Source: Candidatus Gottesmanbacteria bacterium
Lineage (GTDB): Bacteria > Patescibacteriota > Microgenomatia > JAMCYU01
Reading direction: 5' to 3'
NCBI GenBank assembly: GCA_043801155.1
Contig: JAZDMI010000021.1
Span: 130,683-194,682 of the forward strand
Length of the DNA stretch: 64,000 nt
Of this stretch, positions 43,312-60,115 are shown in pieces (position 1 is the first letter of the stretch; every line of letters starts with the position of its first letter). The position numbers were made by a program, and so were the translations under genes. The notes beneath the pieces are model-generated. The model did not search any database. It was not told the DNA's origin and saw only the letters and a list, made by a program, of their open reading frames with translations.

Positions 43312-43602
43312 ATGAAACTATTTATCGATACCGGAGATAATACGAAAACCATTGTTGGTTTAGATAATATTAGGTTAGAAAAGCCGACTGGACCGGATAA
43401 GTCACAGCAAGTCTTGGTTTTGATTGACCAATTACTTAAGGAAAACCATAAGCAGATTAAAGATATTACTGATATAGTAGTAAATATTGGTCCCGGTTCC
43501 TTTACCGGGCTTAGGGTCGGAATAACCGTGGCTAATACTTTAGCCTGGGTATTGAAAGTTTCGGTTAACGGAAAAGTAGCGGTTGAACCTCACTATGATT
43601 AA
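43312..43602 (+). CDS. tsaB: TsaB-like protein, N-terminal-domain-only (96 aa)
   Basis: YeaZ-like N-terminal motif GPGSFTGLRVG; lacks the C-terminal half. Confidence 0.5.
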   Translation: MKLFIDTGDNTKTIVGLDNIRLEKPTGPDKSQQVLVLIDQLLKENHKQIKDITDIVVNIGPGSFTGLRVGITVANTLAWVLKVSVNGKVAVEPHYD

Positions 43603-44200
43603 AAAATTACTATTTTTAACTCCATTATTAATATTAATCCTGTTTCTATACGGTGAAATAATTAAAAAAGAACTTGCTTATTGGTCTGATGACTTATGGG
43701 GGCAAAAACATTCTCTTGATAGTTCTTCCCAATGGCCTGAATCAGGAGTTATTCCGATTACGCCCATTAATAGAGATTTTTGTCTGGTGATTCCAAAAAT
43801 TAATCTAAATTCAGCCATAGTTAGTATAAATTCTGAAAATACTCCAGAGAATTTAACCGTGTTAAAGCAAGGATTGATACACACCAGGGAGAGTGCTTTT
43901 CCTGACCAAAGAGGACCAATTATAATTCTTGCCCATCTCCCTGATAATATTGTAAATTTATTGCATACCAATGTTTCATCATATCTATTTAATAAAATAG
44001 TTATTAATGACGAAATTGACTTATTTTACCTTAGTAAAAGGTATAAGTATTATGTTACCTATAAGATAATATTATCTACTGAAGATACAAAGGCCTATAT
44101 TAATAGTATCCAGAACAAGGATGTTTTAATATTACAAGCTTCCTATCCCCCAATATTACCATTTAAAAAATTGCTGATAATAGCTGATAAACAGAACTAA
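43583..44200 (+). CDS. Sortase paralog with the catalytic Cys replaced by Ser (TLxTC -> LILQAS) and Arg->Lys
   Basis: Aligns throughout with the sortase at 50894-51493. The catalytic His region is retained (IIILAH), but the C->S and R->K changes fall at the catalytic positions. Confidence 0.55.
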   Translation: MNLTMIKKLLFLTPLLILILFLYGEIIKKELAYWSDDLWGQKHSLDSSSQWPESGVIPITPINRDFCLVIPKINLNSAIVSINSENTPENLTVLKQGLIHTRESAFPDQRGPIIILAHLPDNIVNLLHTNVSSYLFNKIVINDEIDLFYLSKRYKYYVTYKIILSTEDTKAYINSIQNKDVLILQASYPPILPFKKLLIIADKQN

Positions 44201-44275
44201 AGCTCTATAATATTTGACATAGGCCATTTGTATCGTTATAATCTATCCATATCTACTTACAAATTCTAGATTTAT

Positions 44276-47200
44276 ATGAACCATTTAGGAAAAGATAAAG
44301 TTTTTGCCTGGCTTTCCGTGTTTTCTCTGACACTCCAAATATTAAACGGAGTGTTTTTATTTTCTCCAATTTATGCACAGGAGCAAACTCCGCAATCATC
44401 TCCAGATACTATGGTTACACCCTCTCCTTCAGTTGAACAAACAAGTAATATTGAAGTTACTCCTATACCAGATGTTTCACCGACACCTGAAATAACACCG
44501 GAACCATCGCCGAGTTTAGAACCAACACCAGTTGCAACACCAGACGTAACTCCGATTCCTGATACAACAGTTTCTCCTAATAATCAACCAGAAGCGCCTC
44601 CATCTGCACAAGCGTTAGATCAAACTCAAGCATCGCCGGAACCGGGTATTTCTCCTTCAATATCTCCTTTGGCTGAACCAGATAAAGAAGATGGCCATAT
44701 TTCCGCGGCAATTTTAAAAGATACTAAAGCAGATTCAATCGATTTAATTGATTTGGATTTTCAGGCAGAGGGAAGCGCCGTCATAAATACTGATAAATTA
44801 GATTATGCCCCAACTGATACAGTTTTAGTCACTGGCACGGGATTTTTACCCGATAAAACTTACACTATAGAAATTACTTCTCAAGATCTACCAGCTGTAG
44901 CTTTTAATGCAGAAGTTAAATCTGATTCTGCTGGTAATCTTTTTTATTCATATCAACTCGATGGAAATTACAGGCCAAATTATAAGGTCGAGATAAAAAG
45001 ACACACAGAGATAATTGCATCAACTACGTTTACGGATTCTGTTCCCTTCGGACCAACATCGTCACAAAATATTGCATGTATGGGTGATCAACCAACTGCT
45101 CCTAGTGGACTTAACTGTACTGCAAATGATATTCAAATTGCATCTGTTGATAATATACACATTGTAGCCAGCGGTCCTGATCCTGCTCACCTTACTCCAA
45201 CAGCAAGTACAGAGTGTGATTATCCTGGTCAATATATACAATTTACTGCAAGTTGGCATGTAGAATCAACGGCTACTTCCCGGTATAATGTGGGACTTTG
45301 GTTTGCTAACCAAGGTCAAACAAACGCACTTCACGGAATGTGTTCAGCTTCTACTCTTCCGAGTTCTCCTAATCCTCCTTTTTTTGAAGATACCGATGAC
45401 ACCTGTGGAGATATCCATAGCGGCGAGATAGGAACAGTAACTCCTGATATTACCGTAATAGCTCAATGTAATGCCGCACCGGGTACAAATCAATTAAGCC
45501 TTCCTTACTGTACAAGCTGGGATCAGAATGAACGAGCAGGGAATGGTTGTAATAATCCCTCCGGAACTGTACCTGGAACTCCATCGAAATGTAGTTGTGA
45601 TAACGGATTCACAGTCCCAATTATTGTTCCGCCATCAATTGAAGTGGTGAAGTCACTTTCACCGTCAAATGACCCAGGTTTATTTAATTTATTAGTTAAT
45701 ACCGTTACTAAAAAAACAGATGCTGGAAATGGCGGGACAACGGGTAAAGTTGGAATAACATTAGGAAGCAATAGCTTTGGGGAAACAGCCGGAACAGGTA
45801 CAAATTTAAATAATTATACTTCAGTTGCATCATGTGTTCTTAGGGGAACACAAACAGCCGTTTCTGCAAGTCAAAGTGGCAATACTTGGACAATAGCTAA
45901 TATTACCAATGGTCAGGATATTCTTTGCACGATTACTAATACAAGGATTAACAATGCCTCAATTACTATAGTTAAAGATGCACAACCTAATAATTCACAA
46001 GATTTTCCTTTTACAACCACAGGATCTGGACTTTCTAGTTTTAGTCTGGACGATGATTCGGATCCAACGCTTTCAAACACAAAAGTCTTCACAGATTTAG
46101 GAAGTGGTATTTATACAGTTACGGAAGGGGTAGTAAGCGGTTGGACTACCAGTCAAATTAACTGCGTTGACCCAACACAAAATTCTTCCGGAAATCTTCC
46201 GACAGCTCCAGTCGCTACTATAAATTTAGCAGCCGGAGAATCGGTTACTTGTACTTTCATTAATACCCGCGATCAAGGCACGATTGAATTAAAGAAAGTC
46301 TGGTCAGGTACTGGCGGACAAACAACCTTAAATATTGGAACCACTCCTGCCGGAAACGATACCGATACTCAATTAACCGGAGTTGATGGCGTCGCCCCAT
46401 TAACAACGGGACAAAATCAAGTTAATACGGGTACATATTACATGTCAGAAGCCGGAGGTTTAGGAAATTACAGCTCATCAGCTCTTTCCTGTTTCAATGA
46501 TGCTAATAATAACGGAACGAATGATGGGGAATCAAACGTTACAGTGGGAATAAATAATAGTGTTGTTGTGGGTACAGGCCAGCATGTTATCTGTTCTTTT
46601 ACAAACACTCGTAATACCGGCACCATAAAAGTAATAAAAGATGTTTCTCCAGATGATCAAGGAGCAACATCTTGGGATTTTGCTATTAGTGGACCAACTA
46701 ATAACTCAGCGACATTAGTTGATGGTGGACAATCAAATGCTTTTACCTCTGACACAGGAAATTATACAGTTACAGAGACCGCACATACTGGTACCAATGG
46801 AAGTAATTACAATACAACCTATTCTTGTTCAGTAGTGACGAACGAAATTACTCATGGTAGCGGTAGAATTGCCACGTTCGCTTTAGCAACAAATCAGAAC
46901 GTTGTTTGTACATTCACCAATGCACTGCGGACCGGTCATATTATTGTTGATAAAATTACAGTGCCTTCCGGTGATGCTCAAAGCTTTACCTTTGCTACAA
47001 CCGGAACCGGTTATACAGGATTCAGCTTAACAGATGTTTCAACTCCGAACGATCAAGAACTTTTGATTGGAAATTATAGTGTAACAGAAACAGGAGTTAA
47101 TGGTTGGACATTAACAAATACTTCTTGTGTCAGCTCAATTCAAGATACAGAAACTGCCAATAATCTCGAGCTTGATGCAGGCGAAACAATAACTTGTACA

Positions 47201-50200
47201 TTTACCAATACCAAAAAAGGTTCAATTACTGCTTGTAAATACAATGATGTTAACGGCAATGGTGTAATAAATCAGGGTGATGATCAACTTCTTGATGGTT
47301 GGGAGATGACTTTAAATCCCGGAAATATAAAGCAATCAACAGTTAATGGTTGTACGACTTTCAGTAACTTGTTACCAGATAATTATTCTATTATTGAAAC
47401 TCTTCAGCCTGATTGGTCAAATACTTCTGGTGGGTTGACACAAAATATTTCTCTTACTGCTGGTGAGAATTCTACGGTTAATTTTTTAAATTTTGAACTT
47501 GGGGATATTACTGTATGCAAATATAATGACTATAACGGTAATGGTCAATACGAACCGCAAGATGATTTACCATTATCAAATATTTCGATTAATCTTTTTC
47601 AAGCGATAAACCTTCTTGATACAAAATCAACTGGTTTAAATGGCTGCGTTACTTTTAACGGATTAACAGCTGGTCAATATCGCGTCGCTGAAGATTATAA
47701 CGATCCAGATTTACTTGGATATTACTCGACAAATAATATAACCCATTATGATGTTAACATTGTCTCTGGTTCACAAGAAAACAGAATCTTTTTAAATACC
47801 CAATATCGGACTATTTCTGGCACAAAATACCATGATTTAAATAATAACGGAGCAAGAGATGCCGGGGAACCAGGTCTAGAAAATTGGACAATTTTCATTG
47901 ACTATAACAATAATAATGTTCTTGATGCCGGAGAACCATCAACCACCACCAATGTTAATGGTTATTACGAATTTACCAATTTAGCAGCTGATTCCTATAC
48001 CATAGCCGAAGGACTTAAACCTGGTTGGAACCAAACTCAACCTTCAACTGGTCATTATGATGTTGATGTTCATACGGCAGTTACCTCGACTGGTAATGAT
48101 TTTGGGAACCGCGGAGCATTATCCATTTTTGCATGTAAATTTGAAGATAGTAATGGTCTGCTTGCTGGTGGAAATTTTACACCAGTTACCAACTGGGACT
48201 TTACTCTCGGACAACAGACACAGAACACCGGATCCGGTCATTGCACAACCTTTAGTAATTTAATCCCAGGAGGTTATACAGTTAGCGAACCGTCACCTTT
48301 GCCCAATGGTTGGTTTTTTGCCGATGATTCACAAGGAAGCCGTTATGTAGTTCTGATTGATCAGAATAAGACAGTAAATTTCTTTAATTATCGAAAGGGT
48401 TCAATTACCGGTCAAAAATTTAATGATTTAAATGGTAACGGCAGTAAGAATGGGGGAGAATCTGGTTTACCCGGGTGGACAATTCATTTATTAGATACAA
48501 ACGATAATGTATTGCAGACAACCTTAACGGATGCTAGCGGAAACTTCATTTTTACCAATCTTGATCCAGGGACTTATCGTATCCGGGAAGTCGGACAAAC
48601 CAGCTGGCTACAAAAAACCACAAATCCGATTGATATTGTTTTAAGTAGTAATCAAGCTGTTACTGATATTGATTTTGGTAATCAGGGTAGGGGAATGATT
48701 ACAGTCTATAAAAATGTCGATACCAACGGAGATGGTCAAGTAGAAAACACCGGAGTAACTAATTGGACTTGGGATATTACCGCGGGCGAACAGAATATCG
48801 CCACCGGTCAGACAAGAACGCTGACGGCCGGAAATTATACAATTTCTGAAGACCAACAGGCTAATTATCATATAGTTGATTTAACCTGTGGGCAAACCAG
48901 TCTGGGGGCAATCGAAACAACCAATTTTGACCTAAACCCCGGTCAAGAAATTATTTGTACTTTTACAAATGCACGTGATACCGGAACAGTAATCGTTCAT
49001 AAGTTAGTGGATAGCAATAGTGATAATCAGTATGAGGGTGGAGATGACGATGCCAATAAATTAGGATTCAGGTGGAGTTTGAATAATGAAAATCCAGCCA
49101 CTCGAGATATGGGGACCAATGCCCAAGTAACTACGATAGACAGTCATCTTATTAATGAGAATAATGTACCCGGATATGTCTTTACCGGCTGGTTTAGCGG
49201 AGAAGGAACTTGTGGGGATTTACCTGCCAACCAACTTCAGCTTCCAGTGGACATTAGTCTTATAAGAAATGGTCAATCGAGATCAATTACGCTGTGTAAC
49301 CAACTTCAGAATCCAATTCTCACCATAACGAAGTCCAATAATGCTGGTGGAGATAAAAATCCCGGTGATAATGTTTTATTTACATTGACTGTTACCGCGA
49401 CACAAAGTGCAGTTAATAATGTTATTGTTTATGATCTTCCAGCTGGAGGGTTTAAGTATCGCAGCGGCTCCTGGACTGCCAACTCAAATGTACATGGTGT
49501 TCTTAGTATTCCCGAGCCTAATTATACATCTTCCGGTAAGTGGATTTTGGGAAATATGGCCAAAGACGAGACGATTACACTTACTTATCTTGCTGATATT
49601 GACAGCGGACAACAACCCGGTCTTTACAAAGATTTAGCTTGGGCAACCGGAAAATCGCTGTCTGATACAGATGTCTTGGCTCTAGCAGTTAATCCCGGGT
49701 ACTGGGATACTAATTATGTCGGTACGCAAGTCAATATCGTGAAAGAGCAGCAATCAGGTCTTACCGTTAATGTTGAAGGCAATAAAGAGGAACAGGTTCT
49801 TGGCGCCTCAACTCAATTGCCGGCGACCGGCGCCCAGAGTAAATGGCTTATTGCCGCCTTATTATTGCTAATTCTTGGATTAGTATCTATAATTTCGTCT
49901 ACTTTTATGAAAAAAGGAAAAAAACACTTATTCTTAATTGCTATTCTATTTGTTTTAATGAATATTATGTTAGCTGGTAATGTACTGGCGGCTAGCTTAA
50001 CGGTTCGGATTGAAGAGCCAAAAACACCGACTAATCAAAATAATTTTAAAATTAATTTTGTTACCCTGGATATTGCCGGCCGTGTTATTACCGCAAATTG
50101 TTTTGTTAAAGGACCTTCAGACGCAGGTTTTAGTCAATTTGGACCTGATATAAGTCTTCCTAATGGAGGAAATAATGGAAATTGTAATGTTGATTCAACC

Positions 50201-50887
50201 ATAGTTAATAATCCCGGTACTTATCAATTTTATGTTAGAGCATCGGTTACCGGCGATCCGTCTCAAGATAGTCAGATAGTTTCAACTGAATACCAAAATA
50301 GTATTCCGGGGAATCCGGCTAATTATCAAAAAACTAAAAACCTATGCACTTACCATATAAGTTTTAAGACAGCTGACGATGGTGGAAAGACGGTTAAGGT
50401 AGAGCTTTATCGTTCGGAGAATACCACATTCAATGTGGATTCCGGTTCTCGTGTCCAATCAATGGCACTAGGTTCTAATACCGAAGGCAGTTTTGATGAT
50501 AGTCCACCCGACTGTAGTAAGACATATTATTATGGTGTACGTGCTTTTGATAGTTTCGGCAATGGTTCAGGTTTTGCCGGTGATTCATTTACGACAACCA
50601 CGACCGTGACTATTGCCGCGTCTCCATCAGCTGCTTCCGGAGCAATTCCTATTTCTGGGGCAGTAACAGGATCAGTAGTCGGTGGCGGTACAGGCGAAGA
50701 AGTAGTCGGTGCAACACCAGGCAGTGAAATTGCTTCTCCAGCTCCGGGGACTACGGCTGAAGGTCAGGTGCAAGGTGTACAAGCAACGCAGTCTGGCTTA
50801 CTAAATAAAAAAAACCTGGCAATTTTTGCTGGCATAATCATTGTTCTGGGTCTTCTTTATTATTTCTATCGGCGAAACCAGGCTTAG
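44276..50887 (+). CDS. Giant (2203 aa) sortase-substrate surface adhesin. Signal peptide, Pro/Thr-rich stalk, more than 12 CnaB/SdrD-B-like repeats (..C.FTNTR.. and YNDxNGNG Ca-type motifs), and an internal LPATG sorting signal, followed in-frame by a second signal-peptide-led ~330-aa module with its own C-terminal anchor
   Basis: Read directly from the translation: LPATG at nt 49817-49831, then a hydrophobic stretch, then MKKGKK-hydrophobic-VLAAS (an internal ATG at 49907 with no intervening stop). Confidence 0.8.
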   Translation: MNHLGKDKVFAWLSVFSLTLQILNGVFLFSPIYAQEQTPQSSPDTMVTPSPSVEQTSNIEVTPIPDVSPTPEITPEPSPSLEPTPVATPDVTPIPDTTVSPNNQPEAPPSAQALDQTQASPEPGISPSISPLAEPDKEDGHISAAILKDTKADSIDLIDLDFQAEGSAVINTDKLDYAPTDTVLVTGTGFLPDKTYTIEITSQDLPAVAFNAEVKSDSAGNLFYSYQLDGNYRPNYKVEIKRHTEIIASTTFTDSVPFGPTSSQNIACMGDQPTAPSGLNCTANDIQIASVDNIHIVASGPDPAHLTPTASTECDYPGQYIQFTASWHVESTATSRYNVGLWFANQGQTNALHGMCSASTLPSSPNPPFFEDTDDTCGDIHSGEIGTVTPDITVIAQCNAAPGTNQLSLPYCTSWDQNERAGNGCNNPSGTVPGTPSKCSCDNGFTVPIIVPPSIEVVKSLSPSNDPGLFNLLVNTVTKKTDAGNGGTTGKVGITLGSNSFGETAGTGTNLNNYTSVASCVLRGTQTAVSASQSGNTWTIANITNGQDILCTITNTRINNASITIVKDAQPNNSQDFPFTTTGSGLSSFSLDDDSDPTLSNTKVFTDLGSGIYTVTEGVVSGWTTSQINCVDPTQNSSGNLPTAPVATINLAAGESVTCTFINTRDQGTIELKKVWSGTGGQTTLNIGTTPAGNDTDTQLTGVDGVAPLTTGQNQVNTGTYYMSEAGGLGNYSSSALSCFNDANNNGTNDGESNVTVGINNSVVVGTGQHVICSFTNTRNTGTIKVIKDVSPDDQGATSWDFAISGPTNNSATLVDGGQSNAFTSDTGNYTVTETAHTGTNGSNYNTTYSCSVVTNEITHGSGRIATFALATNQNVVCTFTNALRTGHIIVDKITVPSGDAQSFTFATTGTGYTGFSLTDVSTPNDQELLIGNYSVTETGVNGWTLTNTSCVSSIQDTETANNLELDAGETITCTFTNTKKGSITACKYNDVNGNGVINQGDDQLLDGWEMTLNPGNIKQSTVNGCTTFSNLLPDNYSIIETLQPDWSNTSGGLTQNISLTAGENSTVNFLNFELGDITVCKYNDYNGNGQYEPQDDLPLSNISINLFQAINLLDTKSTGLNGCVTFNGLTAGQYRVAEDYNDPDLLGYYSTNNITHYDVNIVSGSQENRIFLNTQYRTISGTKYHDLNNNGARDAGEPGLENWTIFIDYNNNNVLDAGEPSTTTNVNGYYEFTNLAADSYTIAEGLKPGWNQTQPSTGHYDVDVHTAVTSTGNDFGNRGALSIFACKFEDSNGLLAGGNFTPVTNWDFTLGQQTQNTGSGHCTTFSNLIPGGYTVSEPSPLPNGWFFADDSQGSRYVVLIDQNKTVNFFNYRKGSITGQKFNDLNGNGSKNGGESGLPGWTIHLLDTNDNVLQTTLTDASGNFIFTNLDPGTYRIREVGQTSWLQKTTNPIDIVLSSNQAVTDIDFGNQGRGMITVYKNVDTNGDGQVENTGVTNWTWDITAGEQNIATGQTRTLTAGNYTISEDQQANYHIVDLTCGQTSLGAIETTNFDLNPGQEIICTFTNARDTGTVIVHKLVDSNSDNQYEGGDDDANKLGFRWSLNNENPATRDMGTNAQVTTIDSHLINENNVPGYVFTGWFSGEGTCGDLPANQLQLPVDISLIRNGQSRSITLCNQLQNPILTITKSNNAGGDKNPGDNVLFTLTVTATQSAVNNVIVYDLPAGGFKYRSGSWTANSNVHGVLSIPEPNYTSSGKWILGNMAKDETITLTYLADIDSGQQPGLYKDLAWATGKSLSDTDVLALAVNPGYWDTNYVGTQVNIVKEQQSGLTVNVEGNKEEQVLGASTQLPATGAQSKWLIAALLLLILGLVSIISSTFMKKGKKHLFLIAILFVLMNIMLAGNVLAASLTVRIEEPKTPTNQNNFKINFVTLDIAGRVITANCFVKGPSDAGFSQFGPDISLPNGGNNGNCNVDSTIVNNPGTYQFYVRASVTGDPSQDSQIVSTEYQNSIPGNPANYQKTKNLCTYHISFKTADDGGKTVKVELYRSENTTFNVDSGSRVQSMALGSNTEGSFDDSPPDCSKTYYYGVRAFDSFGNGSGFAGDSFTTTTTVTIAASPSAASGAIPISGAVTGSVVGGGTGEEVVGATPGSEIASPAPGTTAEGQVQGVQATQSGLLNKKNLAIFAGIIIVLGLLYYFYRRNQA

Positions 50888-50893: not shown

Positions 50894-51493
50894 GTGAAAA
50901 ACTTGCCTAAAATCCTTACACTTTTTGGTTTTCTATCGATCTTAACCTCGGGAATTATTTTGATTTTTACTTTTTATCCGGTTTTTAATACCGAAATAAA
51001 CTACGAGATTAAATCAGTAATTAAACCATTTATTAAACAATCTCTCAAACCTATTGACACGGACTTTGGGATTGTCATTCTCAAAATTGATGCTAACAGC
51101 AAAATTGTCGCTAACGTTGATCCTTATAACTCAAAGGAATACCAATGGGCTTTAACCAAAGGTGTAGCCCATGCCCGCGGATCTTCTTTTCCCGGAGAAC
51201 TTGGTAATGTTTTTATTTTTTCTCACTCATCAGTGAACTTTTATGAAGCAGTCCGCTATAATTCGATTTTTTACCTTCTTAATAAACTGGAAAAGGGGGA
51301 CGAGATTGATTTATATTACAAAGACAAGAAGTTTAAGTATCTGGTTAATGAGAAAAAAATGGTCAATTCCGGAGATATTCAATACTTATCCGGTAAAAAT
51401 TCAGATAGAACCGTTACCTTGATGACTTGCTGGCCGCCAGGTACTGATTTAAAAAGATTAATAGTCATAGCTGATTATTCCTCGATAAATTAA
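50894..51493 (+). CDS. Sortase (canonical His / TLxTC / Arg)
   Basis: N-terminal TM segment, IFSHSS His region, VTLMTCWPPG Cys motif, and LKRLIVIAD Arg. Confidence 0.8.
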   Translation: MKNLPKILTLFGFLSILTSGIILIFTFYPVFNTEINYEIKSVIKPFIKQSLKPIDTDFGIVILKIDANSKIVANVDPYNSKEYQWALTKGVAHARGSSFPGELGNVFIFSHSSVNFYEAVRYNSIFYLLNKLEKGDEIDLYYKDKKFKYLVNEKKMVNSGDIQYLSGKNSDRTVTLMTCWPPGTDLKRLIVIADYSSIN

Positions 51494-51559
51494 TAATTCT
51501 TGATATTCCTAATAGAAATTTAACCAATTAAGAGATATAATAATCGCGTATTTACTAAT

Positions 51560-53224
51560 ATGCCTATTAATCAAGTAACCTTAATAAAACTTATTGCTGA
51601 TAGCGGTTTAATCTCTAAGGATGATTTGCGCAATGCCCAAAATACTGCCGATCACTTAGGAAGTACTCGAACCGATATTCTTATTCGGCAAGATTATCTT
51701 AAAGAAGAAGACTTGGGTAATCTATTAAGTAAATTTTTTAAAGTAAAGTATATTGATTTAACTAAAATTGATATACCCATAAAGACTCTTAATTTAATTC
51801 CCGAGTCTTTAGCGGTTGATAGTCGGGTTATTGTTTTTGCCAAAAAAGACGATCAAGTAATGGTGGCAATGGATGACCCTTGGGATCTTGAAGCGATAGA
51901 GTTAGTAAGAAAAACCATTGGTTCGCGGACTAATATTATTCCCCACGTAACAACCCCGGAAGGTATTAAAGAGGCCCTTAAGTTCTATAAAAAGCGGACT
52001 AAAGAAGAGATGGAAGGGCAAATTGAAATAACCAAGACAAAAGACTTATCGGCAATTACGATTGTCAATCAATTGCTAGAAGATGCATGTCGGCAAGAGG
52101 CATCTGATATTCATATCGAACCTTTATCTTCCCAACTGTTAGTTCGATTACGGACTGATGGCGTATTGCATGATCATATGTTACTAGCTAAAGAAATGCA
52201 TCCGGCCATTGTTGCCCGGATAAAAATCCTTTCCGAACTAAAACTTGATGAACAACGTCTTCCGCAGGATGGCCGTTTTTCCTTTGAGACGAAAATGGGA
52301 GAAATAATTGCTCTTCGTGTCTCAACTGCTCCGACCGTATACGGAGAGAAAATAGTCTTAAGGATTCTTCATGATGCTATTTCTAAATTTAATTTAGATG
52401 AACTAGGTTTAATCTCCTCTGATCAAGAAATTATCAGCCGTGTTATTCAACGAACACACGGGATGTTTTTGGTGACCGGTCCGACCGGATCTGGCAAGAC
52501 AACAACTCTATATACAATTTTAGGACTTCTGAACCGACCGGGTGTAAACATTATGACGATTGAAGATCCGGTAGAAAATAGAATTCCCCGGGTAAACCAG
52601 ATACAGGTAAATCCGCAGATTAATCTGGATTTTGCTTCAGGTTTGCGATCGATGTTAAGGCAAGACCCGGATATTATTATGGTTGGTGAAATTCGTGATC
52701 GGGAAACGGCTGTTATTGCTATTAATGCTGCCATGACCGGTCATTTAGTCTTTTCTTCAGTTCATGCCAATACGGCTGCCGGAGCTATTCCAAGAATGAT
52801 CGATTTAGGAGTTGAACCGTTTCTGTTGGCTTCAACCGTTAATATGGTAATCGCCCAACGATTAGTGAGGATCCTTTGCCCGAAATGCCTGGAGGAAATA
52901 AAAATTAGTCCATTAATAAATCAAAGACTGGAAAAATCACAAGCATTTATTTCTCCGGATATTAAAAAGAATTTAACCAGGGATTTTCGAGCCAAAGGAT
53001 GTTCAAACTGCTACTTTACCGGATTTCGTGGCCGGATGGGTATTTTTGAAATTATAAATTTAGACATCCATCTTCAGGAGTTAATAATCAACAAGTCCTC
53101 CAGCAATCTGATATGGCAGGCAGCCCGGGAGGACGGAGCCAGAAGTATGTTGGAAGACGGTTTACTTAAAGCAAATCGGGGGGTTACGCCAATTGAAGAA
53201 GTCTTCCGGGTAATATCAGAGTAA
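51560..53224 (+). CDS. pilB: Type IV pilus assembly ATPase PilB (GspE family)
   Basis: T2SE N-domain, Walker A GPTGSGKTTT, Asp/His boxes, and a Zn CxxC...CxxC motif. Confidence 0.9.
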   Translation: MPINQVTLIKLIADSGLISKDDLRNAQNTADHLGSTRTDILIRQDYLKEEDLGNLLSKFFKVKYIDLTKIDIPIKTLNLIPESLAVDSRVIVFAKKDDQVMVAMDDPWDLEAIELVRKTIGSRTNIIPHVTTPEGIKEALKFYKKRTKEEMEGQIEITKTKDLSAITIVNQLLEDACRQEASDIHIEPLSSQLLVRLRTDGVLHDHMLLAKEMHPAIVARIKILSELKLDEQRLPQDGRFSFETKMGEIIALRVSTAPTVYGEKIVLRILHDAISKFNLDELGLISSDQEIISRVIQRTHGMFLVTGPTGSGKTTTLYTILGLLNRPGVNIMTIEDPVENRIPRVNQIQVNPQINLDFASGLRSMLRQDPDIIMVGEIRDRETAVIAINAAMTGHLVFSSVHANTAAGAIPRMIDLGVEPFLLASTVNMVIAQRLVRILCPKCLEEIKISPLINQRLEKSQAFISPDIKKNLTRDFRAKGCSNCYFTGFRGRMGIFEIINLDIHLQELIINKSSSNLIWQAAREDGARSMLEDGLLKANRGVTPIEEVFRVISE

Positions 53225-53228: not shown

Positions 53229-54443
53229 ATGGCTAAATATTCTTATATCTTGGTTAACCAAGAAGGAAAAAAAGAATCAGGACAAACAGATGCCTTCTCG
53301 CGTGACGAAGCCGCCAATCAGATAAAGCGGCCCGGATGGTTTATCACTTCTTTAGATAAAAAAATTAATTTTAATTTTGATCTACCTTTCTTTAAACGAA
53401 GCGAGAATTTTTCCTCTTTTGAAAGAATAATGTTTACCGATCACCTGGCATCGATGATTCGTTCGGGAACACCGATTATCGAAGCCCTGGAAATTTATAA
53501 CGATGAAAAAGGGAAAAAGAGGAAACTAATTATTGATAACATGGTTAAACAAATACAAAAAGGTAAACAACTGTCGACGGCGATGACTCTATATCCGCAA
53601 ACATTCTCACCACTTTATATTTCTTTAGTCCAGTCAGGAGAACTAACCGGTCGTCTGGATGAGACAATTGATTATTTGTCAAAAGACTTAAGACGGGAAT
53701 ATGAATTTAATGAGAATATCAGATCAGCCCTTTTTTATCCGGTCCTGGTTCTGATTGTGGCTCTATTGGTAGTTATGCTTTTAATAATGGTGGTTATTCC
53801 GAAAGTTTTATTACTGACAAAAGAACTGGGTAATGACATGCCGCCGGTCACCCGGATGGTAGCTTCGGTAGCCGATTTATTGACAAGGTTTGGGCCTTTA
53901 ATAATTTTTTTAATATTTTTAGGAATGATACTGATGCCGATAATCTTCAGTATCCCCGCGGCTAAACGTAAACTTGACCCCTATTTGTTAAAAATGCCAC
54001 TGGTCGGTTCGATCATCAGAAAATATATTTTGTCACGATTCTTGCAAATTGTTGGTAGTTGTTTAAAATACGGAATTCCATTAACGACAATTTTCCCGAC
54101 GATTGGAAATGTAGTTAGTAATGAAATATATCGTCAGGCGTGTAACCGGGTAGAGGCAAAAATAATTAGAGGCTTAAGCCTTTCCGAAGCGCTTAATCAA
54201 GAATTACCGACTGTCTTCCCCCGTGTGATTGTCAGAACGCTAAAAGGCGGCGAGAAAACCGGATCAGTGGATATGACTTGTTTAAGACTTTCCCGTTTTT
54301 TTGAGGATGATATTGACAGGCAACTTAAAAGAGTTACTGATCTTATTGAACCAATCTTAGTTGTTTTCTTAGGTATTGTTGTTGCCGTAATTGCTTTAGG
54401 AGCCATTGCCCCGATATATCAGTTGACATCAAGTATCAGATAG
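53229..54443 (+). CDS. pilC: Type IV pilus platform protein PilC (GspF family)
   Basis: Duplicated T2SF domains with 3 TM segments. Confidence 0.85.
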   Translation: MAKYSYILVNQEGKKESGQTDAFSRDEAANQIKRPGWFITSLDKKINFNFDLPFFKRSENFSSFERIMFTDHLASMIRSGTPIIEALEIYNDEKGKKRKLIIDNMVKQIQKGKQLSTAMTLYPQTFSPLYISLVQSGELTGRLDETIDYLSKDLRREYEFNENIRSALFYPVLVLIVALLVVMLLIMVVIPKVLLLTKELGNDMPPVTRMVASVADLLTRFGPLIIFLIFLGMILMPIIFSIPAAKRKLDPYLLKMPLVGSIIRKYILSRFLQIVGSCLKYGIPLTTIFPTIGNVVSNEIYRQACNRVEAKIIRGLSLSEALNQELPTVFPRVIVRTLKGGEKTGSVDMTCLRLSRFFEDDIDRQLKRVTDLIEPILVVFLGIVVAVIALGAIAPIYQLTSSIR

Positions 54444-54454: not shown

Positions 54455-54964
54455 ATGTTTCAAAAAGGCTTTACCTTAATCGAGATAATAATTGTATTGG
54501 CGGTAATTGCTATTTTATCTGTTGTTGGGATTGAATCGATAATTGAGTTTCAAAAAAGCGCTCTTCTTGGCGGAGTATCTGATGAATTCATGGCTGTTTT
54601 AAGATCGGCGCGGACAAAAAGTATTTCCGGCGAGCTTCTTGCAGGTGAGAGCCCTGAAAAGTTTTCCGAAACTGGTTTACCCATCTATGGAGTCAGAACC
54701 ACAGCTTCAAGTTATACGTTGTTTCGCCGTTATCAATTAGCGTGTCCACCAACACCTTGTTCTCCAATTCAAAATAGTGATCTTGAAAATGAAAGTTATT
54801 CATTAGACCCACACTTGACTTTTTCAACTATTGGCGAAGTTTTATTCGATCGTATTACTGGTGTTCCAATTACTGGTAGTACTACCCAATTTACTCTTGA
54901 AAGAGTCGGTTCAAGCGATCATAGTACTTTGGAAATAAATAACGAGGGAGTAGTCAAAAAATGA
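54455..54964 (+). CDS. Prepilin-type N-terminal cleavage/methylation-domain protein (minor pilin)
   Basis: Class III signal KG/FTLIEIIIV with Glu at +5. Confidence 0.7.
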   Translation: MFQKGFTLIEIIIVLAVIAILSVVGIESIIEFQKSALLGGVSDEFMAVLRSARTKSISGELLAGESPEKFSETGLPIYGVRTTASSYTLFRRYQLACPPTPCSPIQNSDLENESYSLDPHLTFSTIGEVLFDRITGVPITGSTTQFTLERVGSSDHSTLEINNEGVVKK

Positions 54965-55413
54965 CAAAAAACAATGGCTTTTTACTGATTGAGATTCTGA
55001 TCGCCATTGGTTTATCAGCTATTTTCCTGCCGGCTATCGGATTGATTCTTTCTTTTGGTTTAAATGCTGCTTCCGGAAGCGATAAAAATTCAATGGCTAA
55101 TCAACTTGCTCAAGAAGGCATGGAAGCTATATATTATCTAAAAAGTAATAGTTCTGATTGGGATTGGACATCACCAGACTTAGATACAGTAACTGGTGAA
55201 TATTATCAGCCAATAAAAGATAGCGGAGACTGGCAATTAGGAAATATTACCACCTCTCCAATAATTACCCCGGATCCCTTTACCCGGAAAATAGAGATTG
55301 AAGCCGGTTTTTCCGGAGATCAATATTCGCGCAAAATTAATGTTTATGTCACATGGCCGGATAAAAATGGGGAACAGGAGGTAAAACTTGAAAGTTATGT
55401 TACGGCACACTAA
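54961..55413 (+). CDS. Prepilin-type protein (minor pilin)
   Basis: NG/FLLIEILIAI with Glu at +5. Confidence 0.65.
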   Translation: MTKNNGFLLIEILIAIGLSAIFLPAIGLILSFGLNAASGSDKNSMANQLAQEGMEAIYYLKSNSSDWDWTSPDLDTVTGEYYQPIKDSGDWQLGNITTSPIITPDPFTRKIEIEAGFSGDQYSRKINVYVTWPDKNGEQEVKLESYVTAH

Positions 55414-55912
55414 TAAGGGTTTTTCTCTAATTGAACTGTTGGTAGCAATGGCGATTATTAGCAGCTTATCTCTTTTGACCGTGCATCTCCTATACGGTAC
55501 CGTAGCTACCAGAGCTAAACAATATTCGATCGAGGGAGCAAATGATAATATGCGCTTGTTGATGAGCAATATCACTAAAGAAATCCAAAATGCCAACATA
55601 GTATCTATTGATAATTATTATACGTTGAAATTAACTGGCGATATTTGCCGGACAATTATATGGAATCGGGTCGACCAGATTAAAGAAGCTGTTGATAAGG
55701 CAAATCCCTGTCTACCACCGGCTGAGACTTCTACGGATTTTTTTCCAATCAGCAAGGACCAAATTACCATTAATAAAGTTGAATTTTCATCACTGCCGGC
55801 GACCGGTCAGCCCAAAATAATAACCATTAAAATTAGTGGAATATATAACGATAATTTTGGGAGTCACCCGGTTAATCTGGAGACATCAGTAACGCCAAGA
55901 GTTGTCTTTTAA
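55388..55912 (+). CDS. Prepilin-type protein (minor pilin)
   Basis: KG/FSLIELLVAM with Glu at +5. Confidence 0.65.
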   Translation: MKVMLRHTNKGFSLIELLVAMAIISSLSLLTVHLLYGTVATRAKQYSIEGANDNMRLLMSNITKEIQNANIVSIDNYYTLKLTGDICRTIIWNRVDQIKEAVDKANPCLPPAETSTDFFPISKDQITINKVEFSSLPATGQPKIITIKISGIYNDNFGSHPVNLETSVTPRVVF

Positions 55913-55914
55913 AT

Positions 55915-57297
55915 ATGATAAAAACAAAAAAAACACGCAACCAAACAGGCCAGGCAGCGATTTTACTCATTTTTGCTTTGGGACTAATTATTGTCCTGAT
56001 TGGATTATCATTAATCAAAACCGGAACTTTAGAATCATTGATGAGCCGGTCAGAGATTGGTTCTACCAAAGCCTTTTACATCGCCAATGCCGGCGTCGAA
56101 AAAGCATATAGTCTTATTAAGAACGATACTTATACGAGTCCTTTTCCGCTTAATCTTGAAAGTGGCTCCGCCCAAGTTAGTGTGACTGATAATGGTAACC
56201 GTAAAATAATTGAATCAAGGGGTACTACCCAGGGAACATCTGCTAATTTTACGCGTAAACTAATAGTTACTTTACAAAAAACTTCTGGGCTTGATTATGC
56301 AGTTCATGCAGGTAGTGGTGGTTTTGAACTAGATGTTAATTCATTGATTACTGGAAAAAATGGTGCTTCCGGTAATGTTTATTCCAACGGTGATATTATG
56401 GGCAAAAGTAGTGCTCATTCTGACGGTCATTGTATTAAAAACAAGGAAAATGAAGCTGGATCTGTGATTGAAGGTTCGGTAACGGCCGTTGGTAATATCA
56501 TTAAGTATAAAGGGGGCGATGGAGTTTGTGTCGAACAAAGCCTCAGCGCTAACGATCTAAAAGAATGCTATGTAGTTGGATTACGTAGCGGAGTTAATAT
56601 TGATAATGATAATTGTCCATCGGCTGCGATCGAACCACCAGTTATTCTCAATACGCCTCCACCTGTTATTAAATTACCACTTATGGGAGAAGATGAGGTT
56701 ATCGCCGATATCAAGACAACGCCTTTCCCTAATGATTGTACTTTGGGTGGACATATAACTTCTGAAGATTGTTCGTTTGGAAGTAATAAAATTGGCCCTT
56801 TAATAATTAAAGGCGGCCTGACAATTGAATCAAATACAAATGTAATATTTTCTGGACCTGTCTATATTCAGGGGAACTTAACAATTAAAAGCCATGTAAA
56901 TATATCCATGGATCAGACGAATCCTGCTTGTATAAGTCAAATGATTATTACTACTGGAAGTATATCAATCGCTAGCTACGTAAATATTGGTAACCAATCA
57001 TGCGATCCTTCAGGAAAGGCGTTTTTATTATTTATATCAAAACAAGTTGCGAGTGGATCTGATATTTGTCAAGATCCAACAATTTCTCTTTCTTCAAATA
57101 CGGATACAGTATTGTTCTATACAAATGATGGTTGTATTAATATTGCTTCTAAACTAGATGTTCATGGTACGATACTTGGTAAAAAGATTCATGTTTCTAG
57201 TAATTCAACCATTGAATATGATCCGGATTTAAAATTTGCTGATTTTGGTCCGCAGCAAGAAGGAGACTGGCAGACATTGTCGTTCAAGGAAGAATAA
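55915..57297 (+). CDS. PilX-N-like pilus-associated protein with a large beta-rich extracellular domain
   Basis: The N-terminal QTGQAAILLIFALGLIIVL segment resembles the PilX_N domain. No Glu at +5. Confidence 0.4.
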   Translation: MIKTKKTRNQTGQAAILLIFALGLIIVLIGLSLIKTGTLESLMSRSEIGSTKAFYIANAGVEKAYSLIKNDTYTSPFPLNLESGSAQVSVTDNGNRKIIESRGTTQGTSANFTRKLIVTLQKTSGLDYAVHAGSGGFELDVNSLITGKNGASGNVYSNGDIMGKSSAHSDGHCIKNKENEAGSVIEGSVTAVGNIIKYKGGDGVCVEQSLSANDLKECYVVGLRSGVNIDNDNCPSAAIEPPVILNTPPPVIKLPLMGEDEVIADIKTTPFPNDCTLGGHITSEDCSFGSNKIGPLIIKGGLTIESNTNVIFSGPVYIQGNLTIKSHVNISMDQTNPACISQMIITTGSISIASYVNIGNQSCDPSGKAFLLFISKQVASGSDICQDPTISLSSNTDTVLFYTNDGCINIASKLDVHGTILGKKIHVSSNSTIEYDPDLKFADFGPQQEGDWQTLSFKEE

Positions 57298-57353: not shown

Positions 57354-58790
57354 ATGAATACATATTTATTAGGTATAGAATGGTCAGAAACTAATCCTAA
57401 AATCGCCTGTTTCCGTAAACGGGGAAGTAAGTACGATCTTTTCAAGCTTGATGAGCTGTCGATAGAAAAACAAACGGAAGATAATATTGTCAAAGCCTTT
57501 TCTGACTGGCTAAAAAATAATATTCCCCAGAATAGCCAGATAAAGACCTTTTTAGCCTTACCGGAATCCTATATTTTCTTAAAAGAAACCGAGTTGCCAA
57601 AAATAAATGAAAAAGAGCTTGATGAAGCTGTTTTCTGGGAGACTTCTTTATTTACACCTTTATCTCCATCTAATGTCGTCGTCCAATGGCGAAAAATTTA
57701 TGAAACAGATAAAAATCTATATGTTTCCGTTATTGCGGTTAAAAACGATGTCGTCGAACGATTGGTATCAATTTTTGATCAAATAGGACTTCCCATTTTA
57801 GCCATTGAGCCAACATCATTATCTTTGTCGAGATTATTACCCACCGTGTCAGATAAAATAACTCTTTTGGCTTCTGCGGGTACTGACGAGACAAATTTTA
57901 TTGTTATTAAGAACGGTTCACCGATTTTTTCTAATTCGATTCCGATTACCTTGACCGGGATGAAGACTAAAAAAGAGAAATTAGATGAGGATATTGCAAA
58001 TAGTTTAGCTAATAGCGTCAGGGAAGTCATTTATTTTTTGGAACAGAAAAAAGAGGGGACGGTTCAGGAAGTTGTCATTGCCGGCGATGTTGTTAGTTAT
58101 TCCGGTTTAGCATCGACAATTAATAACTATATTCACTTACCGACAATTTGGGGAAAATTTCCTGCTTTTAATTTTTTAAGACCGATATTAGGTTCAAAAC
58201 AGACTATTAGTCGATATCTAGTTGCCCTGGGTGCGGCTATTCGGCCGCTTATAGGCAGCGAAAGGGTAAACCTTCTGCCTTATAAAAATAGGCAGTTATT
58301 CGAAAAAGACGAACAGCAAAATTTCCTAATCAAAAGGATAAATATTTTATCAGGATTATCTCTTTTAATTTTAGCTGTATTTTTATTGCTGGCTACGGGA
58401 TTTGCGTTGTGGAATAGATCTCTCGGCGGGCAGCTTGACCAGGCAAGAATTTCAATTAACACCCACCCGGCTCAAAAATTGATTAATGATATCAAAGTAA
58501 CCAATAATCTGATTACCCAAGTTGGCCGGTTAGTAACCGAACAGAAAGACAGCGGAGAAAAACTACAATTATTTGCCTCTTTAGTTCCGGCCAATATTCG
58601 CCTGACGAGCCTGACTATAAATATGGATAAAAAAGACGAATGGAAGATTGCCGGAATCGGAGATAGACAAACAATTATTGCTTTTTATCAGCAATTAGTA
58701 GATAAAAGTGGCGCTCGACATGTTAGCATGCCCTATTCTAATTTACAAAAAGACAAAGACGTCGACTTTAAGATAACAATCGTATGGTAA
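57354..58790 (+). CDS. pilM: PilM-like actin-fold protein fused to a PilN-like TM/periplasmic segment
   Basis: ~330-aa cytoplasmic domain, then a TM segment (INILSGLSLLILAVFLLLATGFALW), then a ~120-aa tail. Position within the pilus operon. Confidence 0.5.
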   Translation: MNTYLLGIEWSETNPKIACFRKRGSKYDLFKLDELSIEKQTEDNIVKAFSDWLKNNIPQNSQIKTFLALPESYIFLKETELPKINEKELDEAVFWETSLFTPLSPSNVVVQWRKIYETDKNLYVSVIAVKNDVVERLVSIFDQIGLPILAIEPTSLSLSRLLPTVSDKITLLASAGTDETNFIVIKNGSPIFSNSIPITLTGMKTKKEKLDEDIANSLANSVREVIYFLEQKKEGTVQEVVIAGDVVSYSGLASTINNYIHLPTIWGKFPAFNFLRPILGSKQTISRYLVALGAAIRPLIGSERVNLLPYKNRQLFEKDEQQNFLIKRINILSGLSLLILAVFLLLATGFALWNRSLGGQLDQARISINTHPAQKLINDIKVTNNLITQVGRLVTEQKDSGEKLQLFASLVPANIRLTSLTINMDKKDEWKIAGIGDRQTIIAFYQQLVDKSGARHVSMPYSNLQKDKDVDFKITIVW

Positions 58791-59323
58791 AAATTATCAA
58801 TAATATTAATAAAAATATCCTGATTTTTCCTGCTTTAGTATTGGCGATTATCCTAGTTTTGTTAATCGTAACCGGAAATTTTCTTTATCAGAAAGCATTA
58901 ACAATTAAAGACAGCCAACAAAAATTATCTATTCTTAAGCAGGACTTATTCTATTTAGATAAAATTATCAGCGATAAAAATGCCAGTCAGTACCAAATAA
59001 ATGAGATGGTAAAATCTTTACCCGCCAGTTACAACGACGTCGTTACCTTCGTATCGCAAATCGAAAGAATCGCCACTCAAAGCAGTCAAAAGATTGAAAT
59101 TAATATTGCCGAAAAGGCAATCCCGGAAACAGGAAATCTGGCCAGTATTAAATTGTCCATCAAAACAATTGGTTCATATAATGGATTTACCAAGATGATA
59201 TCTAATTTTTCCAGTTTACCATTCCATACCAAAGTTGATTCGATCTTAATTGAACAAAATAAAGAAGAACTTTCTGCTTTAACCGAGTTAAGACTATTTA
59301 AGAGGGAAGAGGAGATAAAATGA
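58784..59323 (+). CDS. PilO-like bitopic membrane protein
   Basis: N-terminal TM segment plus coiled-coil; operon position. Confidence 0.35.
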   Translation: MVKIINNINKNILIFPALVLAIILVLLIVTGNFLYQKALTIKDSQQKLSILKQDLFYLDKIISDKNASQYQINEMVKSLPASYNDVVTFVSQIERIATQSSQKIEINIAEKAIPETGNLASIKLSIKTIGSYNGFTKMISNFSSLPFHTKVDSILIEQNKEELSALTELRLFKREEEIK

Positions 59324-59574
59324 AAAGAATAACCGAAAACCTATTTTTCTTTATCATATTAATCTATTGTTTCAGCGTTCTTTTTTTCCTGGCAAAAGTC
59401 GTAGTTAAAATCAATGTTAAACAGCAATCCCTTGTCGAATCGCCGATTCCCATACTAGCGGTTGGTAAGCTCAATAATGTCTATCAAGTTCTGGTTAATA
59501 GAGAACAGATAAATTATCCAAAAGTCGATTTAGGAAACTTCAAATTCGGCAAAACAGAACCTTTCAGTCCTTAA
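59320..59574 (+). CDS. Small membrane protein (PilP-like?)
   Basis: 84 aa with one TM segment; operon position only. Confidence 0.25.
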   Translation: MKRITENLFFFIILIYCFSVLFFLAKVVVKINVKQQSLVESPIPILAVGKLNNVYQVLVNREQINYPKVDLGNFKFGKTEPFSP

Positions 59575-59575
59575 A

Positions 59576-60115
59576 ATGGATTTAAATAAAAAACATATAG
59601 ATGTTAAAGGATTTACCCTAATTGAACTTTTATTGGTGATTGTGGTTATCGGAGTGCTGGCCACCGTCGGTTTATCAATATTAAATCCTCAGGAAATGAA
59701 CCGCAAAGCCAGAGACAGTAGAAGACTATCAGACTTAGGGATGCTGCGTCGATCACTGGACATGAGCATGTCTGATGGAAATAAGTTACCGAACACTAAT
59801 AAGAATCCTGTAGTGATTGATTCATCAATGAGCCCGTCCACTTTTGGGGGCGGGCTTGGTATAGATATCAGTAAATATATACCATCAATACCTCAAGATC
59901 CTTCATATAGCTCGGGTGGAGATCTCCAAATTGCCAAAGGAGATTGTATTACAGGTACAGCTACCAGTACGATGCAATATGAATTCTCAAGCAACGGGAC
60001 GACGTATATCCTTAGATCTCGTTTGGAATCAGTAAGTAATTGCCGTTTACTATCTGATGATGGTAATAATGATGATTATTATGAATTAGGGACTCAACCT
60101 GGCTTGAAATGGTAA
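59576..60115 (+). CDS. pilA: Type IV major pilin
   Basis: Leader MDLNKKHIDVKG / FTLIELLLVIVVIGVLA with Glu5, and a C-terminal Cys pair (C..C). Confidence 0.75.
   Translation: MDLNKKHIDVKGFTLIELLLVIVVIGVLATVGLSILNPQEMNRKARDSRRLSDLGMLRRSLDMSMSDGNKLPNTNKNPVVIDSSMSPSTFGGGLGIDISKYIPSIPQDPSYSSGGDLQIAKGDCITGTATSTMQYEFSSNGTTYILRSRLESVSNCRLLSDDGNNDDYYELGTQPGLKW

Follow-up and report, generated by a model that had tools for sequence, protein, structure and literature searches.

An adhesin-like protein with an internal sorting signal and a fused fibronectin type III partner, encoded in a sortase cassette beside type IV pilus genes in a Candidatus Gottesmanbacteria genome

The stretch of DNA analyzed here (the window) comprises 64,000 nucleotides (nt) of contig JAZDMI010000021.1 (positions 130,683 to 194,682 of the forward strand; assembly GCA_043801155.1), part of a metagenome-assembled genome (MAG) of Candidatus Gottesmanbacteria, a lineage of the Microgenomates within the candidate phyla radiation (CPR). 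Between positions 43583 and 60115, it encodes a degenerate sortase, an open reading frame (ORF) of 2203 amino acids (aa) dominated by immunoglobulin (Ig)-type repeats, a second sortase, and a run of type IV pilus genes. It is likely that this region consists of two separable surface systems, a sortase cassette and a pilus operon, that lie side by side in this lineage. Pili and the presence of sortase are already known for these bacteria. What is new is a conserved cassette of an adhesin, a partner protein with fibronectin type III (FnIII)-like domains, a sortase, and often a CAP-domain protein, and above all the widespread in-frame fusion of adhesin and partner, which places a sorting signal in the middle of a polyprotein. 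We use the name adhesin for a presumed adhesive function.

The original prediction, made from the DNA letters and a list of ORFs, described this region as one contiguous surface-appendage locus, and its observation was largely correct: the listed ORFs are in place, are all on the plus strand, and are co-directional, with spacing that ranges from a 26-nt overlap to 90 nt. Our gene and domain calls are based on Pfam and NCBIfam scans of the window ORFs. Four proteins of the region are exact matches of NCBI entries MFH0864169 to MFH0864172, from the same Candidatus Gottesmanbacteria MAG, and the contig that carries them is 272,544 bp long. The adhesin fusion, both sortases, and PilB are each singletons at 90% identity among ~15 billion proteins, and a close relative has therefore not yet been sequenced. 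The features of the fused ORF and of the sortase that follows it are listed below.

44276 to 50887, plus strand: whole 2203-aa fused ORF (NCBI MFH0864170.1), consisting of adhesin, internal sorting signal, and FnIII membrane partner (SdrD_B 3e-30, SpaA_4 1e-24, SpaA 2e-20)
44276 to 45628, plus strand: adhesin N-terminus, with a Sec signal peptide (aa 1 to 34), a Pro/Thr-rich linker to ~aa 150, and a Cys-rich head to aa 451 (sequence reading)
45629 to 49339, plus strand: twelve divergent CnaB/prealbumin-type Ig repeats, aa 452 to 1688, SpaA_3/SpaA_4/SpaA_2-like and SdrD_B-like (Pfam, self-search, alignments, AlphaFold2 [AF2] and Foldseek)
49340 to 49780, plus strand: DUF11-type last Ig domain of the adhesin (PF01345, E = 5.1e-7)
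49817 to 49921, plus strand: internal sorting signal, with LPATG at aa 1848 to 1852, a hydrophobic helix at ~aa 1857 to 1876, and KKGKK to aa 1882 (sequence; weak match to Gram_pos_anchor)
49922 to 49990, plus strand: internal signal-peptide-like helix ending in VLA|AS, which aligns with the N-terminal signal peptides of stand-alone homologues
49994 to 50578, plus strand: two tandem FnIII-like domains of the partner, with four invariant Cys residues and an EQPKSPTN-type motif (alignment; AF2 predicted local distance difference test [pLDDT] score of >90)
50600 to 50797, plus strand: disordered Thr/Gly-rich stalk of the partner (pLDDT of <50, module residues 233 to 298)
50804 to 50878, plus strand: C-terminal membrane anchor helix, followed by the positive tail RRNQA (sequence, AF2 model)
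50894 to 51493, plus strand: cassette sortase, catalytically complete by sequence (His, TLMTC, Arg), with an N-terminal membrane helix (Pfam 3.4e-21, 75.7 bits)

Sorting signals are normally described as strictly C-terminal. The LPATG of the 2203-aa ORF is the only LPXTG sorting signal in the window, and although the LPXTG, the helix, and the positive cluster are all present at aa 1848 to 1882, this signal is not at the extreme C-terminus, as ~320 residues come after it. Counted from the LPATG itself, ~350 residues follow in the same ORF, and the last 326 of these make up a separately conserved protein family. The earlier description of the ORF as a 2203-aa CnaB-repeat adhesin is therefore right about the repeats but does not hold for a plain adhesin, since the LPATG is internal and a fused partner follows. 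The sorting motif is conserved in the extended form (E/Q)VLGAST-x-LPATG (adhesin aa 1838 to 1852, nt ~49787 to 49831), and (E/Q)VLG(E/T) motifs recur one or two times in the disordered stalk of the partner (nt ~50600 to 50797 in the window) in most relatives.

Profile searching, done exhaustively across 1.84 billion cluster representatives, found 1126 members of the partner family, 527 of them at an E value of ≤1e-30. The family has no functional annotation and no Pfam domain, save one PF12245 record on a single match (P0021). Stand-alone homologues of ~320 aa with their own signal peptide are present in many relatives, including Daviesbacteria, Levybacteria, and Saccharimonadales MAGs. Alignment of the family revealed a near-invariant E-Q-P-K-S/T-P-T-N motif near the mature N-terminus, and Foldseek matched the model of the partner to tandem FnIII structures, including that of Vibrio cholerae RbmA.

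The gene order around the partner is strongly conserved. Gene calls around two homologues gave a giant SpaA-type protein, a partner overlapping it by 8 nt, and then a sortase, and a scan of metagenome contigs added 80 further loci (the loci of relatives carry L numbers below). Wherever 900 bp or more of downstream sequence was available, a sortase directly followed the partner (61 of 61 loci), and an adhesin-like ORF preceded the partner wherever upstream sequence was available. The cassette was found across the related CPR loci sampled, mainly in Microgenomates (Daviesbacteria and Levybacteria among those named, together with one Saccharimonadales MAG). When adhesin and partner are separate genes, the adhesin tail, typically ...RRKYA*, overlaps the partner start codon by 8 nt in the form ATGnnTAA. 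The window has the fused form of the same adhesin-partner-sortase order, and its sortase gene begins 6 nt past the fused ORF. One locus from Levybacteria (L003) carries, at positions 1 to 664, a second pair of a partner-like gene and a sortase ~9 kb upstream of the main cassette, indicating that some genomes hold more than one cassette.

Fusion of this kind is widespread. Adhesin and partner were fused in frame in 20 of the 74 loci in which the state could be determined (~27%). At the protein level, 95 of the 140 newly listed proteins among the 150 best profile matches were 400 to 3052 aa in length and ended in the partner module, and 92 of these 95 long representatives carried [LM]PxTG at 280 to 430 aa from the C-terminus. 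The junction is also uniform in the 80 parsable fused proteins: LPxTG and PK(S/T)P were 52 to 77 aa apart, a K/R cluster lay between two hydrophobic stretches in all 80, and a small-x-small motif stood at the expected signal-peptidase position in 79. No Met is present near the junction in 30 of the 80, and in these proteins the partner therefore cannot be made separately. A crude neighbor-joining tree of the partner core implied ~8 switches between the fused and separate states. In this tree, the window grouped with two fused loci, L089 and L112, and since these nearest partner-clade relatives are also fused at only 44 to 52% identity, the fused state appears to be old and maintained. Two further loci (L163 and L164, positions ~9990 to 10005) have the adhesin stop codon followed directly by the partner start codon in the same frame (...SGNKK TAA ATG AAA...), a state that is intermediate between overlap and fusion and is one point mutation away from fusion.

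We considered whether the fusion might be an assembly or sequencing artefact, or a nonfunctional read-through, of what are really two genes. Homopolymers of six and seven A residues do lie at the junction, most stand-alone relatives are a single 1-nt frame offset (the 8-nt overlap) away from fusion, and the in-frame stop-ATG arrangement of L163 and L164 could be read in the same way. However, the homopolymers are downstream of the shared ATG, where an indel would break the partner gene as well, and the complete sorting signal, Lys-rich loop, and signal peptide all fall in one frame. The same architecture recurs, moreover, in the 92 independent long representatives, which come from many assemblies and include the proteins that lack a junction Met, and it is found in the nearest relatives of the window despite their divergence. 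A homopolymer frameshift as the cause of the fusion is ruled out by the position of the A runs and by this wide recurrence, and the artefact explanation as a whole is very improbable. Because the architecture is uniform and recurrent and the junction homopolymers cannot explain it, we treat the fusion, as read from these sequences, as real and presumably functional. Several points weigh against this reading or against the processing proposed below. The locus counts include some near-duplicate contigs, and representatives chosen at 50% identity over-weight long, fast-diverging proteins in the fusion counts. Met1877 (nt 49907) is retained at the junction in the window, so that the partner could also start internally, and the cassette sortase matches no characterized class by the NCBIfam class cutoffs.

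The arrangement of these elements predicts a specific topology. The adhesin would be outside the cell, the helix after LPATG would run from outside to inside, and the Lys-rich loop would be cytoplasmic; the signal-peptide helix of the partner would then run from inside to outside and end in an A-x-A site, leaving the FnIII domains outside, followed by the stalk and the final anchor helix. In this arrangement, the sortase would cut after the Thr of LPATG and pass the adhesin to a nucleophile in the envelope, and signal peptidase would cut after the internal signal peptide. The expected products would be the same two mature proteins as in the two-gene relatives, plus a small hairpin remnant. That both forms would yield the same mature products may explain why a 1-nt change in the 8-nt overlap has been tolerated repeatedly. 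We give roughly even chances to the proposal that sortase (LPAT|G) and signal peptidase split one polyprotein at the cell surface, giving an adhesin anchored to the wall or to the partner and an FnIII stalk protein held in the membrane, the strongest version being that the adhesin is ligated onto the partner, in a CPR-specific display anchored by a membrane protein.

The adhesin would most likely be transferred to a peptidoglycan precursor. Such an acceptor would be the simplest, given that several peptidoglycan enzymes are encoded in the window: an S11 carboxypeptidase, a PcsB-like M23 hydrolase, and a YkuD L,D-transpeptidase. An alternative is that the partner itself is the covalent anchor, with sortase joining LPAT- to an amine of the FnIII protein, either the Lys of PK(S/T)P or the mature N-terminus. 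In that case, a stalk anchored in the membrane, and not peptidoglycan, would carry the adhesin, in a two-subunit analogue of a tip and basal pilin. Consistent with this idea, the partner occurs together with adhesin and sortase in every locus with a readable flank, translational coupling or fusion would favor a 1:1 stoichiometry of adhesin and partner, the near-invariant P-K-S/T-P motif lies ~10 residues from the predicted mature N-terminus, and, in the AF2 model, the disordered stalk is long and a membrane anchor is present. On the other hand, 12 of the 80 fused representatives (15%), as well as some stand-alone proteins, have D, Q, E, A, or R in place of the Lys of PK(S/T)P. A nucleophile that is obligatory should not vary, and these substitutions weaken the case for that Lys as the obligatory sortase acceptor; the peptidoglycan enzymes of the window, in turn, imply that the usual acceptor should exist. 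We therefore regard covalent attachment to the partner as improbable and favor cleavage by the two enzymes with transfer of the adhesin to peptidoglycan as the simplest scheme.

The pilus genes begin shortly after the cassette sortase and are followed by genes for an S8 protease and a CAP-domain protein:

51560 to 53224, plus strand: PilB assembly ATPase (T2SSE 3.4e-126, plus MshEN)
53229 to 54443, plus strand: PilC platform protein (T2SSF 1e-51, two stretches)
54455 to 55912, plus strand: three minor prepilins (54455 to 54964, 54961 to 55413, and 55388 to 55912), two of them matching N_methyl/TIGR02532 and the third with G|FLLIE read directly
55915 to 57297, plus strand: PilX_N-like large pilus-associated protein of 460 aa (PilX_N E = 2.5e-4, below the curated cutoff; DUF7305 weak)
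57354 to 58790, plus strand: PilM, with a membrane helix; C-terminal half probably PilN-like (PilM_2 29.7 bits versus a cutoff of 27; TIGR01175 E = 8.5e-13)
58784 to 59323, plus strand: PilO (PF04350, 28.5 bits versus a cutoff of 22)
59320 to 59574, plus strand: 84-aa membrane ORF that matched no family
59576 to 60115, plus strand: major pilin candidate, G|FTLIE (N_methyl match; GspG-like 3.2e-9)
60206 to 61567, plus strand: secreted S8 subtilase with a fervidolysin-type prodomain (1.5e-56)
61645 to 62595, plus strand: CAP-domain membrane protein (CAP 8e-20)

To compare synteny, we surveyed 38 cassette loci whose flank was 3 kb or longer and 80 PilB loci from GTDB species genomes. Pilus genes were near the cassette in only ~5 of the 38 loci (~13%; L086, L089, L122, L128, and L139), and their arrangements were mixed, with two loci convergent, one on the opposite strand, and one with pilA only. 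The order seen in the window (tsaB, adhesin, partner, sortase, pilB, pilC, prepilins) was repeated in a single locus, L122, in which 6 nt separate the sortase gene from pilB and the proteins are 42 to 48% identical to those of the window. No sortase was found within 10 kb of PilB in any of the 80 GTDB loci, a weak negative, as these loci were mostly not from Microgenomates and were only 36 to 46% identical. The adjacency of pilus and sortase genes is a sporadic, lineage-specific arrangement and not a conserved super-operon. In L089, the pilus genes after the sortase (11816 to 18641) are pilA, pilC, a PilT-like ATPase gene, and pilB on the opposite strand, followed by two pilin genes on the plus strand.

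The original prediction proposed a single coordinated adhesion module, and in its fullest form this would be one co-transcribed unit in which, for example, initial contact through the pilus is followed by locking-on of the sortase-anchored adhesin. The order kept in L122 despite considerable sequence divergence agrees with that proposal, as do the co-directional genes, the 66-nt gap between sortase and pilB, in which no terminator-like hairpin was found, and the occurrence of pilus genes near the cassette in five scattered relatives. The module is not conserved, however: 33 of the 38 cassette loci have no pilus gene in the flank, the orientation of pilus genes varies among the loci that have them, and the PilB loci lack a neighboring sortase. 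A perfect sigma-70 consensus site (TTGACA-17-TATAAT, 12/12 match, predicted by consensus) lies at 44214 to 44242 on the plus strand, 33 nt before the adhesin ATG; of the 78 promoter-like sites across the 19.8 kb that were scanned, no other is a perfect match. Another promoter-like site (TAGAAA-17-TATAAT, 10/12) lies at 51513 to 51541 on the plus strand, in the gap before pilB. Since the adhesin and pilB each have a promoter-like site in front of them, the region is likely to comprise two or more transcription units. Furthermore, the gene right after the sortase is more often a CAP gene in relatives, and the pilus block hence looks inserted. A single co-transcribed module is rather unlikely on this evidence, and two separable systems remain our preferred reading; the ~13% of cassette loci with pilus genes nearby count against complete independence, as a nonrandom link could underlie them.

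The original prediction also suggested that the S8 protease and the CAP-domain protein might belong to the same secreted toolkit. The CAP part of this suggestion is supported, as full-length CAP homologues (38 to 56% identity) are encoded 25 to 240 bp after the sortase in many relatives (L096, L111, L114, L143/144, L149, L151, L152, and L163/164), so that by its position and sequence CAP looks like a frequent fourth gene of the cassette. The S8 part is uncertain, since S8 genes are near the cassette in only a few relatives. In the window, a 10-kb block of pilus genes and S8 separates the sortase from the CAP gene, and this block appears to have arisen by insertion or rearrangement in an older cassette.

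The cassette resembles several known systems without matching any of them in full. It shares with sortase-anchored LPXTG Ig-repeat adhesins of Gram-positive bacteria, of the SdrD/Cna/SpaA type (similar to microbial surface components recognizing adhesive matrix molecules [MSCRAMMs]) a Sec signal peptide, a CnaB/SdrD-B shaft with a Lys-Glu-Asn signature and Ca-type motifs, an LPATG with hydrophobic helix and positive cluster, and an adjoining sortase with His, Cys, and Arg. In contrast to these adhesins, its sorting signal is followed by ~350 residues of a second conserved protein, its head has no recognizable ligand-binding A-domain, its host is a CPR bacterium, and its sortase falls outside classes A to F. 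Sortase-assembled pilus loci are likewise compact cassettes of Ig-fold surface proteins with a dedicated sortase, and the repeat fold is nearest to those of Spy0128, BcpA, and SpaC. The window, however, has one LPXTG protein, with no YPKN pilin motif or second pilin found in it, its sortase scores 59 bits with the class C model against a cutoff of 160, and its partner is held by a membrane helix and not by an LPXTG signal. A sortase-polymerized pilus is ruled out by the single LPXTG substrate together with the class C score below the cutoff.

The partner can also be likened by its architecture to PamR, an RbmA-like protein of the CPR Pam pilus operon (bioRxiv 10.64898/2026.03.03.709456), which likewise combines a signal peptide and two FnIII-like domains with a membrane helix at the C-terminus; RbmA itself, as noted above, was among the Foldseek matches of the partner model. 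A role in tying a surface filament to the membrane has been proposed for PamR (bioRxiv 10.64898/2026.03.03.709456). The window differs in having no Pam pilins or chaperone-like genes, and the context of the partner is a sortase and an LPXTG adhesin and not donor-strand exchange. In the literature that we searched for internal LPXTG signals, or for LPXTG and sortase in Patescibacteria and Microgenomates, there was no account of the cassette or of the fusion.

The repeats of the adhesin were assigned above the curated cutoffs by several Pfam models, with scores for the giant ORF of 105 bits for SdrD_B (cutoff, 29.7), 87.8 for SpaA_4 (cutoff, 27.3), 73.5 for SpaA (cutoff, 23.1), 49.1 for SpaA_3 (cutoff, 24), and 26.9 for SpaA_2 (cutoff, 25). 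SdrD was the sole match in a PDB sequence search with the adhesin. The AF2 model of repeat 2 (aa 561 to 668) had a pLDDT of 82.8 and a predicted template modeling (pTM) score of 0.77, and its best PDB matches in Foldseek were Spy0128, T-antigen pilins, the Bacillus anthracis TIE protein, SpaC, SdrD, a CnaB2 domain, and BcpA, which are known isopeptide-bonded proteins. These results support the CnaB/prealbumin-type fold that had been suggested for the repeats. The suggestion of isopeptide bonds gains support at the level of sequence and fold, as a search for the bond-forming triad found, in 12 of 12 repeats, a strand-A Lys, the Glu of Y-x-V-x-E, and a last-strand Asn, with the Lys and the Glu invariant in the alignment. 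Such a Lys/Glu/Asn triad is the sequence signature of intramolecular isopeptide domains, and the repeats may be cross-linked in this way. The count of 12 repeats given earlier was confirmed, but the motifs said to characterize them are not found in all: C.F.N occurs in 5 repeats (6 with the C.I.N variant), and the YNDxNGNG-type motif occurs in 5. At the other end of the adhesin, the Sec signal peptide was read directly from the sequence as MNHLGKDKVFAWLSVFSLTLQILNGVFLFSPIYA|QEQ, and the Cys-rich head, like the N-terminal 450 residues as a whole, matched no Pfam family at an E value of ≤1.

The two sortases of the region differ in their catalytic residues. The upstream one precedes the adhesin:

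43583 to 44200, plus strand: degenerate sortase paralogue (Pfam Sortase 3.3e-8, 33.8 bits versus a cutoff of 26.6)

NCBI places its start at 43595 (201 aa, MFH0864169.1), and it has an N-terminal membrane helix. In a pairwise alignment, it was 35% identical to the cassette sortase; its His is kept, TLMTC has become LQAS (Cys to Ser), and the catalytic Arg has become Lys. The name pseudo-sortase used in the original prediction is thus fair, with the catalytic Cys and Arg both lost and the His retained. The cassette sortase is 48 to 57% identical to its orthologues in other lineages and is closer to them than to the pseudo-sortase, for which a search of 5.8 billion proteins returned no homologue but itself. 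Judged by its sequence, the upstream protein is a lineage-specific, fast-diverging orphan duplicate that has lost the nucleophile Cys and the Arg. In the cassette sortase, the predicted catalytic residues are read in FSH, TLMTC, and KR. This protein scores 49 with TIGR01076 (cutoff, 39.35) and fits none of the sortase classes A to F, the best class model being class C at 59.3 bits versus a cutoff of 160, with D, E, and F lower. Its candidate substrate peptides are VLGASTQLPATGAQSK and VLGASTQLPATGAQSKW.

The pilus operon is, by its gene content, of the standard CPR or Gram-positive type, in the order pilB, pilC, three minor prepilins, pilX-like, pilM(N), pilO, a small ORF, and pilA. The prepilin signal G|F-x-x-I/L-E was read in four prepilins. 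As for the pilM/N fusion of the original prediction, the PilM half is above the cutoff, whereas the PilN half has only a weak match in the C-terminal half of the ORF (E = 0.076). Nor was the operon found to be complete, as had been claimed: pilD and pilT are absent from the window, with no Peptidase_A24 and no second T2SSE in Pfam scans of 66 window ORFs that included all those of at least 195 aa, the ~10 ORFs of 100 to 165 aa at 4.9 to 38 kb that fell outside the scan being too short to encode PilD or PilT. PilQ was also absent among the scanned ORFs, as expected. The PilD and PilT genes may lie elsewhere in the genome, and the pilus would depend for its prepilin peptidase on a gene beyond the window.

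CPR loci L005, L008, and L009 have the same gene order (pilB, pilC, minor pilins, pilM(N), pilA) with the same spacing. The co-directional pilB, pilC, several prepilins, pilM, pilO, and major pilin, with no PilQ secretin, are shared with type IV pili of the CPR and Gram-positive type, from which the window differs in that its cluster abuts a sortase cassette, an uncommon arrangement; it also lacks both the pilD and pilT genes that are present in the Microgenomates Ch65 locus (PMC7143001). [quoted passage not shown]

The surroundings of the region are those of a typical CPR genome. The window has a GC content of ~36%, nearly all of its coding sequence is on the plus strand, and its housekeeping genes encode SecA, a release factor, Lon, pyruvate:ferredoxin oxidoreductase, the SUF system, and aminoacyl-tRNA synthetases. 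A cluster at 38298 to 41034 encoding FtsE, FtsX, and the PcsB-like protein (coiled coil plus M23 peptidase) forms a cell-separation module in the Gram-positive style, and it is followed at 41044 to 41934 by the gene for a Pro/Thr/Ser-rich secreted protein with a C-terminal membrane helix. Genes for threonylcarbamoyladenosine (t6A) synthesis come next: a tsaE-like gene (42246 to 42710), sua5/yrdC (42720 to 43292), and a very short tsaB-like ORF (43312 to 43602, 96 aa), whose end overlaps the start of the pseudo-sortase gene. In L122, a tsaE-like gene and a short tsaB also precede the adhesin, but there is no pseudo-sortase. Farther upstream, the ORF at 52 to 936, which adjoins the window start and may be cut, has a YbaK-type tRNA_edit domain in addition to the C-terminal part of a class II Asp/Lys/Asn-type tRNA synthetase core. 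The pyruvate:ferredoxin oxidoreductase at 13665 to 16222 has two subunits, and a 273-aa protein encoded at 34294 to 35115 has only the C-terminal domain of the Fe-hydrogenase large subunit; both are in keeping with an anaerobic life by fermentation.

Attachment to host cells is the presumed way of life of CPR bacteria, and we know of almost no CPR adhesins beyond type IV pili. The three- or four-gene sortase cassette of Microgenomates-type genomes (adhesin, FnIII partner, sortase, and often CAP) gives future work a defined object. The fused substrates will escape annotation pipelines that search only C-termini for LPXTG. If sortase does process such polyproteins, the textbook rule of a C-terminal LPXTG signal would need to be qualified, and widespread natural internal sorting signals would extend the known capability of sortases.

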